A stretch of 64,000 nt of DNA. It comes from an uncultured Clostridiaceae bacterium. GTDB taxonomy: Bacteria > Bacillota > Clostridia > Saccharofermentanales > UBA5734. The stretch lies in NCBI GenBank assembly GCA_942493365.1, contig OW818697.1, positions 1,634,634 through 1,698,633 of the forward strand, read 5' to 3'. Shown piece by piece: positions 59,811 to 64,000 of this stretch. Below the pieces are notes generated by a model, which was not told where the DNA came from, did not search any database, and saw nothing but the letters and a program-made list of their open reading frames with translations. Every line of letters begins with the position of its first letter. Position 1 is the first letter of the stretch. The position numbers were made by a program, and so were the translations under genes.

Positions 59811-60671
59811 CTATTTAAACAGTCCCTCCCAATTGTCTGGGAACCCGTTGAATGCAAGATTAATATCATCAGCATATTTATGGACCAGAGCCGTAAGATT
59901 TTCAGAGAAAGATCGCCAATTTGAGCCTTTCTCTAGATTTAATCTCTTTAACATTATAATAACCGGAAATATTTTTATGCTATTGTAAGCAGAATCATCC
60001 TTAAATAGTTTAGGACGTTTCACGATTATTCGATTGTAGAGTCGACCATTGTGTGCGCAAATGTTCCGAATGTAACAAAGACACTCAAACCAGCCGGCAA
60101 GATAAAATTCGTCTATCCCAAAGCATAGTGCAATAGCTTTTTGATCTCCCGGTAACAGATTCCCAAAAAGTTTTGAAGTAATTCCAAATGACCAGGTTTC
60201 GATTGCCGCCCAGATAGGTAAGTCTTTATATATCTCAACATGATGCTTAACAAATGCTGCATCTATCATTTGATCGATTGCATTGGTATGCATTTTTAGA
60301 AACTTTTCGTGTTGCTGCTGATTCGAAAATATCGAACTATCTTTGTGGCAAATATTGCCGTACTTTATCGCCAAGTGGTTTGAAATTGAAGCTCGAAGTT
60401 TAATCTCAATTGGCTCGATTACAGCAATAAATAATCGACGTAGATTTTCATCAAATCTATAGATTCGGTAAATTTGTTCGAAAGTTGTACCTGAACGGAA
60501 AATATTGTTTCTTCGAAGTCCAAGACTATATGCGCTTAATCTGTAGTAGTGAATTCTAGATAGTAAGGTCTCGGCAGATTTATCGCTGCTGATAGTCATT
60601 CCGCGGTCCTTTAGGATTTGGATCTGCTGTTTTATCGTGGTAGCGGATTTTAAGCCTACATCATTTAGCAT
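59811..60671 (-). CDS. Abi_2 family (AbiD/AbiF-type) abortive infection protein, HEPN-like
   Basis: QIQILKDRGM...LLSRIHYYRLSAYS...IYRFDENLRRL...IEIKLRASISNHLA...YIRNICAHNGRLYN (Rx4H). The start is set to ATG 60671, because the upstream 12 codons of the ORF track lie inside the duplicated leader. Confidence 0.85.
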   Translation of the reverse strand: MLNDVGLKSATTIKQQIQILKDRGMTISSDKSAETLLSRIHYYRLSAYSLGLRRNNIFRSGTTFEQIYRIYRFDENLRRLFIAVIEPIEIKLRASISNHLAIKYGNICHKDSSIFSNQQQHEKFLKMHTNAIDQMIDAAFVKHHVEIYKDLPIWAAIETWSFGITSKLFGNLLPGDQKAIALCFGIDEFYLAGWFECLCYIRNICAHNGRLYNRIIVKRPKLFKDDSAYNSIKIFPVIIMLKRLNLEKGSNWRSFSENLTALVHKYADDINLAFNGFPDNWEGLFK

Positions 60672-60691
60672 ATGTTCACCCAGTCCGTTCC

Positions 60692-60757
60692 AAAAAAATG
60701 ACCCCACTTGGTCCGCGGTTTCTCTTTCGAGCCCTAAGCGTGTGGGGTACTGTTATC
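60692..60757 (-). ncRNA. structured leader/small RNA with an intrinsic terminator upstream of the Abi_2 gene (copy 1)
   Basis: The minus strand reads GGGGAUAACAGUACCCCACACGCUUAGGGCUCGAAAGAGAAACCGCGGACCAAGUGGGGUCAUUUUUUU. ACCCCAC/GUGGGGU form a 7-bp closing stem. Inner pairs are CGC/GCG, GG/CC and CUC-GAAA-GAG. A U7 tract follows. The 5' end is inferred from the promoter, not measured. Confidence 0.5.
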
Positions 60758-60760
60758 CCC

Positions 60761-60790
60761 ATTATACAACAAGTTCTGTGTCTAATGCAA
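60761..60790 (-). promoter_or_regulatory. candidate promoter driving the leader RNA and Abi_2 operon
   Basis: On the minus strand, TTGCAT (60790-60785), 18-nt spacer, TATAAT (60766-60761). It is conserved in the second copy (61580-61575 / 61556-61551). Confidence 0.5.
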
Positions 60791-60968
60791 CTTCAATATT
60801 GTTAGTTTGCGGAAAATTAAGTGACATTATTATGATACTATATGCGATACTGTATTTCAAGATTCTATACTTGCTTTTCAGTCAATTATATATCGCTTTT
60901 GAAATGTGATGAGCGACATTCGTTCGACAAATTTCGACAATAGCTCCTCTTGCTTTTGATCCATACCA

Positions 60969-61271
60969 TTACCTGACAGCCTTTCTAATTTCCTTCTCTT
61001 CCAACTGCAATTTGTTCAGTGTATCTTGAAAATAGTGGCGTTTGTCAATTTTCTTCTGAATTTCATCCGAGTCGAACTTATCCTTGGGCCCCAAATAGTC
61101 TGTCTTCACTTTTTTATGAACCCGATAGAGCAGATAGTAATAATCTCGATTCTTGACTTTTTTCAAAATGATCTTGCCTTTAGGCAGCGCGTCAATTTGT
61201 TCCTGGTATGATTTTTGCATGTCCAGATTTCGTTCCAATTCTTCGATGAGAACATTTTTAACTATTGACAC
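60969..61271 (-). CDS. small basic protein of unknown function (100 aa), possible DNA-binding autoregulator
   Basis: GTG start 5 nt after GAGGTG. It contains KGKIILKKVKNRDYYYLLYRVHKKVKTDYLG plus a charged helical tail. I know the motif from small proteins in mobile/defence contexts but cannot name a family. Confidence 0.55.
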   Translation of the reverse strand: MSIVKNVLIEELERNLDMQKSYQEQIDALPKGKIILKKVKNRDYYYLLYRVHKKVKTDYLGPKDKFDSDEIQKKIDKRHYFQDTLNKLQLEEKEIRKAVR

Positions 61272-61320
61272 TATGTCACCTCATACATAAAAAATAATCA
61301 AAACTGAAATTGGCAGGTTT

Positions 61321-61419
61321 TACCCTACATAATGAAATATTGTTGGCAATTTGTAGGGTATCCATTTAAATGTATTCTACCATACATATATAGATTTTTC
61401 CATATAATTGTAGGGTATC
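61321..61419. promoter_or_regulatory. operator-like triad of TGTAGGGTA motifs around a candidate promoter of the 100-aa gene
   Basis: TTGTAGGGTATC occurs at 61351-61362 and 61408-61419, with an inverted TACCCTACA at 61321-61329. The minus-strand promoter is TGGAAA (61402-61397), 17 nt, TGgTAGAAT (TAGAAT at 61379-61374). Confidence 0.45.
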
Positions 61420-61465
61420 TTTATTCCTCTACTTTCTAAATAATCCGCTTCTTCTCGTCCATACG

Positions 61466-61593
61466 CTCACCCAGTCCATCCAAAATAAAAGACCCCACTT
61501 GGTCCGCGGTTTCTCTTTCGAGCCCTAAGCGTGTGGGGTACTGTTATCCCCATTATACAACAAGTTCTGTGTCTCATGCAATTCACTCAATAT
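61466..61593. repeat. ~128-nt direct repeat, copy 2 (orphan leader module)
   Basis: See copy 1. It is followed on the minus strand by GGGTGAGCGT ATG GAC GAG AAG AAG CGG ATT ATT TAG, only 8 codons. Confidence 0.95.
61481..61547 (-). ncRNA. second copy of the structured RNA with terminator, not followed by an abi gene
   Basis: The RNA core is identical to copy 1. The U-tract is CUUUUAUUUU. Its own TTGCAT-18-TATAAT promoter is retained. Confidence 0.45.
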
Positions 61594-61663
61594 TACATTC
61601 ATTCAATTTTACATCGCATTAGAAATGAACAGAACGTCGTTCGTTCGACAAATCTCGACAAAA

Positions 61664-62551
61664 CTATTCCACTTTCCCAATGATCCGCTCGGCAATGTCC
61701 TGACCAAAGGGCACGCTGCCGTCATCGCCCGTGAACGCGGTCCACTCGTCGTAAATCGCCCGCAGATCAGCGTCCAAGTAAGTCAACGCCCGCTCGCGCA
61801 ACGCCTGCGGAATGCCATAGTAAGCCTCGGCGATGCCGCCGGTAATGGCCGCCAGCGTGTCGCTGTCGCCGCCGACCGAAATGGCGGTGCGGATGGCGTC
61901 CTCGAACGACACCGACTCCAGAAACGCCTCGATCGCCTGCGGCACCGTGTCCTGGCAGGTCTCATTGAAACGGTAGCTCGCCCGGATCTCGTCGATCGTG
62001 AAATCCAGCGGGTAATAGTCCGCCTCGATCCGCCGCCGGATCTCCTGGCGGGTCGCGCCCTGCCGCGCCATGACCATGGCCACCACCGTCGCCTCGGCCC
62101 CTTTGAGGCCCTCCACGTGATCGTGCGTGACCGCCGTGATCACCCGCGAAAGCTGGACGGCATCATCCTCCGACCGCGCGAAATCCCCCACCGGGCTGAT
62201 GCGCATGGCCGCCCCATTGCCAAAACTCTGGTAGGGCTGCGGATGGTCGCTGAACATCCAATTCGCGAACCGGCCGCCATAGCCGCAGTTGGGATACTTG
62301 CGGCCGATTTCCTGCATCCATTGGACCGTCAGTTCGCCGAGGCGCGCATCATACTCGGGGCTGTAGCCCCAGCCGCTTTCCCGCAACGGTTTCAATTTAG
62401 CTGCGGCCATGATCGCCTTGGCCACGGCGAGGGTCATGATGCTGTCGTCGGTGGCAAAGCAGCTCGCGGCAAATAATTCGAAGTCTTTGCTGCGATGATT
62501 GTTGAATTCAAATCGCGACCCGACGATGTCGCCAATGATTGCTCCTAGCAT
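61664..62551 (-). CDS. ADP-ribosylglycohydrolase family protein (DraG/ARH-like)
   Basis: MLGAIIGDIVGSRFEF...TDDSIMTLAVAKAI...GNGAAMRISPVG...GGDSDTLAAITGGIAEAYYG are the canonical ARH metal-binding motifs. Its G+C is visibly higher than both flanks. Confidence 0.9.
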   Translation of the reverse strand: MLGAIIGDIVGSRFEFNNHRSKDFELFAASCFATDDSIMTLAVAKAIMAAAKLKPLRESGWGYSPEYDARLGELTVQWMQEIGRKYPNCGYGGRFANWMFSDHPQPYQSFGNGAAMRISPVGDFARSEDDAVQLSRVITAVTHDHVEGLKGAEATVVAMVMARQGATRQEIRRRIEADYYPLDFTIDEIRASYRFNETCQDTVPQAIEAFLESVSFEDAIRTAISVGGDSDTLAAITGGIAEAYYGIPQALRERALTYLDADLRAIYDEWTAFTGDDGSVPFGQDIAERIIGKVE

Positions 62552-62847
62552 AGGGGGTTACCTCGTTGTGGAAATTTGCTCAAAGTGTGTCCGAGGCCAT
62601 AAGACTCGATTTTAACGTTGGACTGACGTCATTTAGAATTATTATAACTGTGATCGTGGGCTTTGCGAAAAGTTTAGATGGCCTTTAAGCGGTTTTGCAA
62701 GGCATTGTCCAATTTATAGATTCGATGCTATAACTGCTGATCGATCTTGTAAAATGCATCCAGCCTGGACGTCTTTTCTTGTATTTGCACTTGTTCACCT
62801 CGCGTTGATCCCTACGGATCGTAAAACGGATGCGAACTCCTATTCTG

Positions 62848-63543
62848 TCAAAATAAATCTAAGTCGCTGATTTGCATCTGTAAAGATATTGCTGGCTTTT
62901 TGTAGCAGCTTATAAAAGCAGCTCTACTTGATAATGCTTTATCAAGCTGTCCGAGATTAAGTAAACTAACAAACAGCGCTGCTGACCTAGCCTGGCAATT
63001 TACGGATTTATTATGATTGAATTCGATATCCGTAAATATTTCGAAAGAATTTAACTCTTTTGCGAGATCAGGATTTTGTAGTAAGGCGTTAATATATAGC
63101 CAGTCATAAAAAGCCGTTTTCGGTTCAAGCGACCAATCGCACCCGCTATATTGGAAATTCAACAACCTACCAGAATTTTTCAGTCGCATATCCTTTTTTG
63201 CTTCGCTTGCTGAACAATTCAGTAAATCTGTAAATGGCCCACCACAAGCAAATACTTTTGCTGATTGAAATATGTTCTCAATACTAACTCGTCTATCCAG
63301 ATCATCAACCTTCATTTTCAAATTGAAAGCACTTAGGGCAACACCTAACGGGTTTTCGGATTTTGATGAGATTTCGAGCATTCGTTTCTCGGAATATTTT
63401 TTCTTTATTTGGTTATGCAGTGATCGAATTGATTTTTGTTTCTGGCTTACAGAAAAGCCCGTAAAGAATTCAAAGTCACATAACTCTTCCGAAATAAAGT
63501 GCTTTTCATTAGGAGTTGATCTAAAGAATAATCTTTGTGCCAT
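62848..63543 (-). CDS. NADAR-like (YbiA/DUF1768 superfamily) protein, candidate DarT1-associated antitoxin
   Basis: PLGVALSAFNLKMKVDDLDRRVSIENIFQSAKVF parallels the NADAR core (FSNF..-~15 aa-..SEHYFQAQKF in E. coli YbiA). FYDWLYINAL...FTDIEFNHNKSVNCQARSAALF is a pattern I associate with DarT1-linked NADAR proteins. The ATG is 9 nt after the upstream stop, with GAGG as RBS. Confidence 0.55.
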   Translation of the reverse strand: MAQRLFFRSTPNEKHFISEELCDFEFFTGFSVSQKQKSIRSLHNQIKKKYSEKRMLEISSKSENPLGVALSAFNLKMKVDDLDRRVSIENIFQSAKVFACGGPFTDLLNCSASEAKKDMRLKNSGRLLNFQYSGCDWSLEPKTAFYDWLYINALLQNPDLAKELNSFEIFTDIEFNHNKSVNCQARSAALFVSLLNLGQLDKALSSRAAFISCYKKPAISLQMQISDLDLF

Positions 63544-63552
63544 GAATAGGCC

Positions 63553-64000
63553 TCACTTCCAATAGGCAAAGTCGTGCCTATAACTAAAGTATTCACGAGA
63601 GTAACTACTGTTGATATTGAGATTACGAGATTTGACAAGCGTTTCTACTTCATTATGCACATCATTGGTAGGCGCTAATATTCCAGTAATATATTCAATG
63701 CTAATACGCTCTTTGACTAATACCTCAGCTTGCGGATTAGATGTGAAATTGTCAGTTAAAGCCAGATCTCCACGCGTTTTTTCTCCCGCCTTGGTTGTAA
63801 TACGATCGCTAAATAATCGCTGTATTCCGGCGATACCTTTTAGCTGGTCTGGATAATTGAAGATATAGTTTAGATATTTCGTTGCATTATGCGGGCAGTA
63901 AAGCACATCTTGATATTTATTCGCCAATATAATCGGGTTTATGGTTAACATAATCCATTTATTGTCAAGATGATGTAATTTGTTCCAAAGCATCAGATAA
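63553..64000 (-). CDS. DarT-like (DUF4433-type) DNA ADP-ribosyltransferase toxin, C-terminal part (5' end probably beyond the window)
   Basis: The C-terminal NPQAEVLVKERISIEYITGILAP resembles the DarT ARTT-loop glutamate motif (QAEFLV followed by ..I..IGV). The frame is still open at nt 64000. It is followed immediately by the NADAR-like gene. Confidence 0.5.
   Translation of the reverse strand, partial: YLMLWNKLHHLDNKWIMLTINPIILANKYQDVLYCPHNATKYLNYIFNYPDQLKGIAGIQRLFSDRITTKAGEKTRGDLALTDNFTSNPQAEVLVKERISIEYITGILAPTNDVHNEVETLVKSRNLNINSSYSREYFSYRHDFAYWK

Follow-up and report, generated by a model that had tools for sequence, protein, structure and literature searches.

The window analysed here is a stretch of 64,000 nucleotides (G000:C1:1634634-1698633) from the genome of an uncultured Clostridiaceae bacterium, a single contig of 2.37 Mb with 53.3% G+C. 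At its right-hand edge, a gene for a DarT-type toxin is followed on the minus strand by a gene for a NADAR-type antitoxin and then by a gene for an ADP-ribosylglycohydrolase (ARH). The toxin and NADAR genes very probably form a DarTG1-type module, in which the toxin would ADP-ribosylate bases of single-stranded DNA and NADAR would erase the mark, carried as defence or addiction cargo of a genomic island next to an unrelated ARH gene with a putative promoter of its own. DarT1-NADAR pairs were described in 2023 as toxin-antitoxin systems that also act against phages (Schuller et al., Mol Cell; PMC11543638). The locus is an ordinary copy of this known pair, and there is little new at the system level. 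The useful outcome is a negative one: the locus represents no new three-part system, and it is not a hybrid with DarHTG, the helicase-containing DarT system discussed below.

A DarT1-type toxin coupled to a NADAR antitoxin

Three open reading frames (ORFs) lie on the minus strand: 63553-63999, still open at the window edge; 62848-63543, encoding 231 residues; and 61664-62551, encoding 295 residues. The edge ORF contains NPQAEVLVKERISIEYITGI, and the 231-residue ORF contains LSAFNL...SIENIFQSAKVF. A 9-nt spacer, GGCCTATTC, separates the toxin TGA from the NADAR ATG, and the GAGG-type ribosome-binding site of NADAR overlies the toxin stop codon. The NADAR stop codon and the ARH ATG lie 296 nt apart. 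This layout agrees with the sequence-only reading of the DNA, which had described a minus-strand frame open at the edge, a NADAR-like ORF of 231 residues after a 9-nt gap, and a canonical ADP-ribosylglycohydrolase gene 296 nt further on; the latter two assignments are borne out by matches to Pfam families PF22397 and PF03747, and the first frame could be completed.

The toxin frame runs 539 nt past the window edge to an ATG with the ribosome-binding site GGGGGA, giving a protein of 328 residues. An alternative TTG start nine codons upstream (a 337-residue ORF) was judged less likely; the closest relative also has 328 residues. As anticipated from the partial frame, the full protein matches a DarT model (Pfam PF14487, E 8e-19, residues 140-318 of the 337-residue ORF). 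Among solved structures searched with phmmer in the PDB, the only real match is 8baq, DarT1 of E. coli C7 (E 6e-16). An AlphaFold2 model of the toxin has a predicted local distance difference test score (pLDDT) of ~85 over the DarT domain. It superimposes on 8baq with a Foldseek E of 5.6e-15, a template modelling (TM) score of 0.85 and a root-mean-square deviation of 2.8 Å; against DarT2 structures, Foldseek gives TM scores of 0.5-0.6. Scored against a profile built from 54 NADAR-linked DarTs, the toxin reaches 181 bits. Residues shared with E. coli C7 DarT1 are H17, F18, T19, D49, S63, M71, N104, Q150 and E152; the NAD+-binding H-F-T, the base-coordinating N104 and the catalytic Glu (Q150-x-E152) thus all align.

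The 231-residue protein matches the Pfam family NADAR-DarT1 (PF22397) with an E of 3.7e-87 over 211 of 212 model positions, and the Geobacter lovleyi NADAR structure 8bat with an E of 1e-61. Four residues, E89, K96, D172 and E174, do not vary among 19 aligned NADAR homologues. Their counterparts in E. coli C7 NADAR are E88, K95, D171 and E173, the first three of which are catalytic (PMC11543638). Since E. coli C7 DarT1 and G. lovleyi NADAR rank as the best solved relatives of the two proteins, the antitoxin has a dedicated Pfam family, and the genes stand in the canonical order of toxin and then antitoxin, the pair is called a DarT1 module, as the sequence-only reading had proposed. The description of such modules as rare did not survive: clustering of the NADAR-DarT1 family at 90% identity gives over 7,800 clusters, and among 185,579 species genomes a pattern scan found at least 578 confirmed loci. 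For the neighbourhood analysis, 80 of these at least 578 loci were kept, plus two extra loci. DarT was detectable by phmmer in 58 of the 80 plus two loci, directly upstream of NADAR in most. None of the PADLOC (2023) models matches NADAR or the ARH. Several JGI records carry the name 'type I restriction enzyme M protein' for homologues of both NADAR-DarT1 and the ARH, an apparent annotation artefact.

The features of the locus are as follows.

63553..64000, minus strand: final 148 codons of the gene for the DarT1-type toxin (ORF; the whole gene extends to window-equivalent 64539, with Pfam, PDB and model matches)
Window-equivalent 63553-64539 (G000:C1:1698186-1699172), minus strand: whole toxin gene, 328 residues, an orphan extension of ~125 residues and then the DarT domain
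62848..63543, minus strand: NADAR-type antitoxin gene, 231 residues (Pfam PF22397, PDB 8bat, invariant residues, selection)
62552..62847, no strand: NADAR-ARH spacer, 296 nt (blastn homology of the cassette to its relatives ends at 62824)
61664..62551, minus strand: stand-alone ARH gene, 295 residues, 62% G+C (Pfam PF03747, metal-site motifs, composition, neighbourhood surveys)
61460..61661, no strand: leader copy (repeats D1 and D2) of the AbiD/AbiF gene (repeat search of the window)

The two genes move together as a self-contained unit. The toxin and NADAR genes have 36% G+C, and their G+C at third codon positions (GC3), 0.31-0.32, ranks them in the lowest 1% of long ORFs in the genome. No NADAR was found in 40 relatives from the same genus, family and order. 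In a collection of 5.8 billion proteins, the toxin has only two close relatives (74% and 69% identity), and their NADAR partners are 80% and 76% identical to that of the window. According to blastn against both relatives, DNA homology covers exactly window 62824-64556, a two-gene cassette of 1.73 kb that begins 17 nt before the toxin ATG and ends 24 nt beyond the stop codon of NADAR. In these two relatives (loci L017 and L099) the pair adjoins a DUF4320 gene, with no ARH in either. In L099, genes for a prepilin peptidase, DUF3846/LPD28 and Toprim/DUF3991 then follow, an arrangement typical of a conjugative element. Across the clade, the DarT domain shows a ratio of nonsynonymous to synonymous substitution rates (dN/dS) of 0.12-0.15 and NADAR one of 0.10-0.18; the extension has values of 0.29-0.33. 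All three are thus maintained by selection.

The pair sits in a low-G+C stretch of ~37 kb, from window ~55000 to ~92500, whose flanks map to unlinked places in same-genus genomes (an empty-site comparison in which only ~70% DNA identity is shared). Also present in this defence island are AbiE remnants, AbiD/F, HicB, a restriction enzyme of the GmrSD type, and a DruE-like gene accompanied by a UvrD-like helicase. The GmrSD-type protein (618 residues, DUF262 and DUF1524) is encoded directly upstream of the DarT gene (L003:6707-8563, minus strand, window-equivalent 64707-66563) and matches the PADLOC HEC-06, Orf5 and type IV restriction models.

From homology and by analogy with studied DarTG systems, we infer toxicity, a DNA target and a role in defence. 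The cassette (62824-64000, continuing to 64556) was very probably acquired horizontally. Its toxin would transfer ADP-ribose from NAD+ to bases of single-stranded DNA (at guanine N2 in the studied enzymes) and thereby block replication, and the translationally coupled NADAR would remove the mark and allow the cell to survive. Phage infection would free the toxin, so that phage DNA is modified and the pair serves in abortive infection or defence, as in the DarTG systems that have been tested. On a mobile element, the pair would act as an addiction module.

Points against the reading and the altered active site

Several observations weigh against this reading. In the three-member toxin clade (the genome of the window and two metagenomic copies), R52 is gone through a two-residue deletion and D54 is replaced by Asn (IRSDSG--NQL versus ND..R.D of E. 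coli C7 DarT1). MAFFT alignments of 12 and 59 sequences and an alignment to a clade-free profile concur on both changes. R52 and D54 are a proton-relay pair essential in E. coli C7 DarT1, and the substitutions R52A and D54A each abolish its toxicity (PMC11543638). As a result, neither the activity of the toxin nor its base specificity is guaranteed. Moreover, no terminator is predicted between NADAR and ARH; co-transcription therefore stays conceivable, and transcription may read through from NADAR into ARH. Finally, since ARH-type antitoxins for DarT exist in DarHTG (PMC13069673), it is biochemically conceivable that an ARH acts on ADP-ribose linked to DNA.

The NAD-binding motifs expected of the toxin are thus present in part: H-F-T, the base-coordinating Asn and Q-x-E stand, whereas R52 and D54 do not. 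The guanine contacts K74 and Y75 of DarT1 are also replaced, by N and by K or a gap. The change at R52 and D54 lowers certainty about the mechanism and leaves the family relationship unaffected.

One explanation is that the toxin has been catalytically disabled or repurposed by the loss of R52 and D54, so that the pair has ceased to function in toxin-antitoxin fashion. It draws on the mutational data for E. coli C7 DarT1 and on how usual the two residues are in NADAR-linked DarTs, with R52 in 52 of 58 and D54 in 50 of 58; four of the five rows gapped at R52 are clade rows (window, L017, P0122, P0123). However, strong purifying selection acts on the DarT domain in the three members of the clade, the loop IRSD(S/P)(G/D)NQL is conserved among them, the remaining catalytic residues are all present, and an intact and constrained NADAR partner is always retained. 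This makes a disabled toxin unlikely. Because of the purifying selection and the conserved NADAR partner, we think that the toxin is active, probably with a rearranged loop.

A connection of the R52 loss with ARH-type partners was considered and rejected. The ARH-linked DarT of locus L125 retains both R52 and D54, and hence the loss of the two residues is unrelated to the ARH.

The extension of ~125 residues at the toxin N-terminus has no Pfam match, and the AlphaFold2 pLDDT is below 50 for residues 1-104. A full-library phmmer search with the extension returned four heterogeneous repeat-like matches (including a ZZ/EF-hand protein and a 5'-nucleotidase) that were judged spurious, and no credible relative outside the clade. 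A Tudor/SH3-like domain in this region is unsupported (Foldseek E above 4). N-terminal extensions are common in DarTs, as seen from toxin ORF lengths that range from ~210 to 777 residues among NADAR-linked loci.

Tentatively, and with a small but real chance of being correct, the clade may represent a DarT1 variant that works without the R52/D54 relay by means of another catalytic arrangement, acceptor atom or base, in which the extension serves as a sensor or targeting domain and NADAR still reverses the product. The clade is a modest lead for enzymologists, as an ADP-ribosyltransferase core under purifying selection that is missing two essential residues of the model enzyme. It could reveal which part of the DarT1 mechanism is dispensable, or a different target.

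The ARH gene and its relation to the pair

The ARH protein matches Pfam ADP_ribosyl_GH (PF03747) above the gathering score with an E of 3.4e-32. Its GD..G..E, TDD, GNGAAMR and GGDSDT motifs align with the metal site of ARH3, including the di-metal residues E15, D35, D36, D229, D231 and T232. On this basis the enzyme is probably active, and the gene is intact. In composition, the ARH gene and the pair are opposite extremes. As the sequence-only reading had noted, the G+C of ARH is much higher (62% vs 36%), and its GC3 of 0.80 is in the top 2% of the genome's ORFs. The composition change coincides with the ends of the ARH ORF. The gene probably has its own promoter: a consensus scan located a putative TTCGCA-17-TATAAT on the minus strand (62669-62641) in which 10 of the 12 hexamer positions match, although this is a pattern match only.

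The ARH subfamily is very large. Its members are 65-72% identical across Bacillota, Thermotogota, Bacteroidota and Acidobacteriota, and a fusion to DUF6508 is frequent. Its distribution is patchy: of 400 other genomes from the class, 46 carry a member. The surveys of neighbourhoods were made in both directions. Starting from NADAR, phmmer found an ARH within 6 kb at one of 80 other loci. A Pfam search of 50 NADAR-carrying genomes found an ARH anywhere in 24 and on the NADAR contig in one; this sole case is locus L078 of genome G079, in which the ARH lies 5.3 kb from NADAR with McrB and McrC between them. Starting from the ARH, neither DarT nor NADAR was found within 1.5 kb at any of 36 loci of the subfamily. 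The neighbours at these 36 loci are heterogeneous and mostly housekeeping genes (aldolase, EF-Tu, ABC transporters, tRNA methyltransferase), and the same is true of two widespread ARH clusters that are 69-72% identical.

Alternatively, the ARH could be an independent defence-island gene, for example a guard that reverses the ADP-ribosylation of host proteins by a phage transferase, with both the ARH and the pair being island cargo. Consistent with this idea, the gene sits within the low-G+C defence island, a same-genus ARH fragment adjoins a DUF262 gene and a transposase, and in L008 and L078 relatives of the ARH lie directly beside McrC or McrBC. The subfamily survey does not favour it, because among the 36 loci there is one McrBC only and no recurrent defence partner; the ARH also lacks a matching PADLOC model. 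We consider this explanation quite unlikely.

The proposal that the ARH works as a second antitoxin or a back-up eraser for this DarT, forming a three-part DarT-NADAR-ARH system by analogy with DarG3 of DarHTG, is very improbable: the ARH is on the same strand only 296 nt downstream with no predicted terminator in between, its metal-site residues are intact, and DarT systems with an ARH-like antitoxin have been published (PMC13069673) and were found here in L124 and L125, but the window ARH matches those DarT-linked ARHs at the level of motifs only and is far closer to the stand-alone ARHs of many phyla, the homology of the cassette stops 24 nt past NADAR, the closest DarT-NADAR copies lack an ARH, the association does not recur in either direction (1 of 50 genomes, 0 of 36 loci), and the compositions are opposed.

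Composition, the homology boundary and the two-way survey all support the view that the ARH is only a neighbour, one of the options left by the sequence-only reading, and the unusual functional grouping that it had suggested is not upheld. The ARH is a separate, intact enzyme of different evolutionary origin and not a component of the toxin-antitoxin pair. Transferase, NADAR and ARH stand side by side in a defence island by chance.

Other observations concern the surroundings of ARH genes. The ARH adjoins McrBC in two unrelated genomes (L008:128-2388 and L078:1-5501), an arrangement that is not recurrent across the 36 ARH loci. In L008, McrC is immediately followed by the ARH, and in L078 an ARH-DUF6508 fusion immediately precedes McrB and McrC. 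Loci L011, L151, L153, L154, L155 and L159 carry ARH homologues at 46-55% identity. Among the ARH loci of this group, BLAST clustering shows a macrodomain-type neighbour common to six and a vWA-type neighbour common to seven; one member per cluster was confirmed by Pfam, and a Pfam tally gives three Macro matches with an E of 1e-5 or less. This grouping of macrodomain, vWA and ARH looks like a small ADP-ribose-related cluster.

Within the window, the leader of the AbiD/AbiF gene is present twice, at 60669-60940 upstream of that gene and at 61460-61661 after the ARH stop codon. The copies share repeat D1 (61460-61581 vs 60669-60790, 122 nt, 93% identity) and repeat D2 (61598-61661 vs 60877-60940, 64 nt, 80% identity). 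The second copy begins 3 nt past the ARH stop codon and marks the 3' edge of the high-G+C segment. A 100-residue ORF (60969-61271) lies between the two copies. An Rfam search of 60000-64000 found no RNA families.

Nearby helicases and comparison with known systems

DarHTG, reported in 2026, consists of the UvrD-like helicase DarH, DarT and the ARH-like antitoxin DarG3, and it has been validated against phages in E. coli (PMC13069673). Because DarT is flanked here by a UvrD-like helicase two genes upstream and by the ARH one gene downstream, the locus was tested as a possible DarHTG hybrid. Comparison loci with DarT and ARH came from 401 genomes sampled in the phylum of the Bacteroidaceae metagenome-assembled genome carrying L029. 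L125 contains a helicase, DarT and ARH, and L124 contains DarT and ARH. Between the window ARH and the ARHs of L124 and L125 there are 18-20 identities over ~50 residues, covering superfamily motifs only. In L124 (L124:2-3119, minus strand), a 337-residue DarT is followed by a 361-residue ARH and preceded by a 328-residue ORF with no Pfam or PADLOC match and no recognisable helicase.

The UvrD-like helicase of the island, a protein of 699 residues, is 26-28% identical to the DarT-linked helicases. Its start codon overlaps the stop codon of the gene for the 2,107-residue DruE-like protein, and a full-length or partial homologue of the helicase follows the DruE-like gene in four of four other carrier genomes of the class. 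The flanks of those four loci contain no DarT, NADAR, GmrSD or ARH. In the island, the GmrSD-type gene stands between the helicase and DarT. The helicase was therefore rejected as a displaced DarH, being a conserved partner of DruE-like genes. The locus does not belong to DarHTG: it has neither a related ARH adjacent to DarT nor a DarH in the DarT operon, which are the defining features.

The DruE-like gene pair is an observation of separate interest. The DruE-like helicase (L003:8646-17068, minus strand, window-equivalent 66646-75068) matches PADLOC DruE1 with an E of 9e-113 and has DEAD and MZB/DUF1998 domains. Its gene is translationally coupled through an ATGA overlap to that of the UvrD/GajB-like helicase, which has an N-terminal domain of ~240 residues. 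Upstream of the DruE-like gene, no DruA-D or DruH was recognised, and a 288-residue ORF there has no match. The two helicases may be a two-gene Druantia-like variant.

In three other genomes (Enterovibrio, L078:5959-8745; Shewanella, L041:5974-8840; Vibrio, L095:5998-8844), a UvrD-like helicase of ~490 residues is followed by DarT in one operon, and a NADAR gene converges on that operon. This is a helicase-DarT module with a NADAR eraser instead of the ARH-like DarG3, a combination that we did not find in the literature examined.

Compared with known systems, the locus resembles DarHTG (Liu-DS3, Nucleic Acids Res 2026, PMC13069673) in that 9 kb of one strand encode a DarT, a hydrolase of the ARH family and a compact UvrD-like helicase. 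In contrast to DarHTG, these genes are not one operon, since NADAR separates DarT from the ARH and the GmrSD gene separates the helicase from DarT; the helicase is conserved as the companion of a DruE-like gene, and the relationship of the ARH to DarT-linked ARHs is limited to superfamily motifs. The ARH itself is comparable to stand-alone bacterial ARH/DraG-like enzymes of PF03747 (ARH3, T. thermophilus ARH, DraG), with which it shares the GD..G..E, TDD, GNGAAMR and GGDSDT motifs. Unlike the solved ARHs, to which its similarity reaches an E of only ~1e-10, it belongs to a large uncharacterised subfamily.

DarTG2 pairs DarT2 with the macrodomain protein DarG and is thymidine-specific. The window pair shares with it the ADP-ribosyltransferase superfamily and the logic of reversible DNA ADP-ribosylation. 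It differs in fold, with a TM score of ~0.6 as opposed to 0.85 for DarT1, and in having no macrodomain antitoxin at the locus; the Tyr of the H-Y-E motif is Ser in the toxin, as in DarT1.

The closest counterpart is DarTG1 of E. coli C7 and Geobacter lovleyi. The toxin departs from it in the N-terminal extension of ~125 residues without detectable relatives, in the deletion of R52 and the change of D54 to N, and in the K74/Y75 guanine contacts, which are N and K or a gap. Otherwise the correspondence extends from the DarT1 fold with H-F-T, N104 and Q-x-E in the toxin to a NADAR-DarT1 antitoxin with the E/K/D catalytic triad, and includes the order of toxin and then antitoxin, their tight coupling and their location in a defence island.

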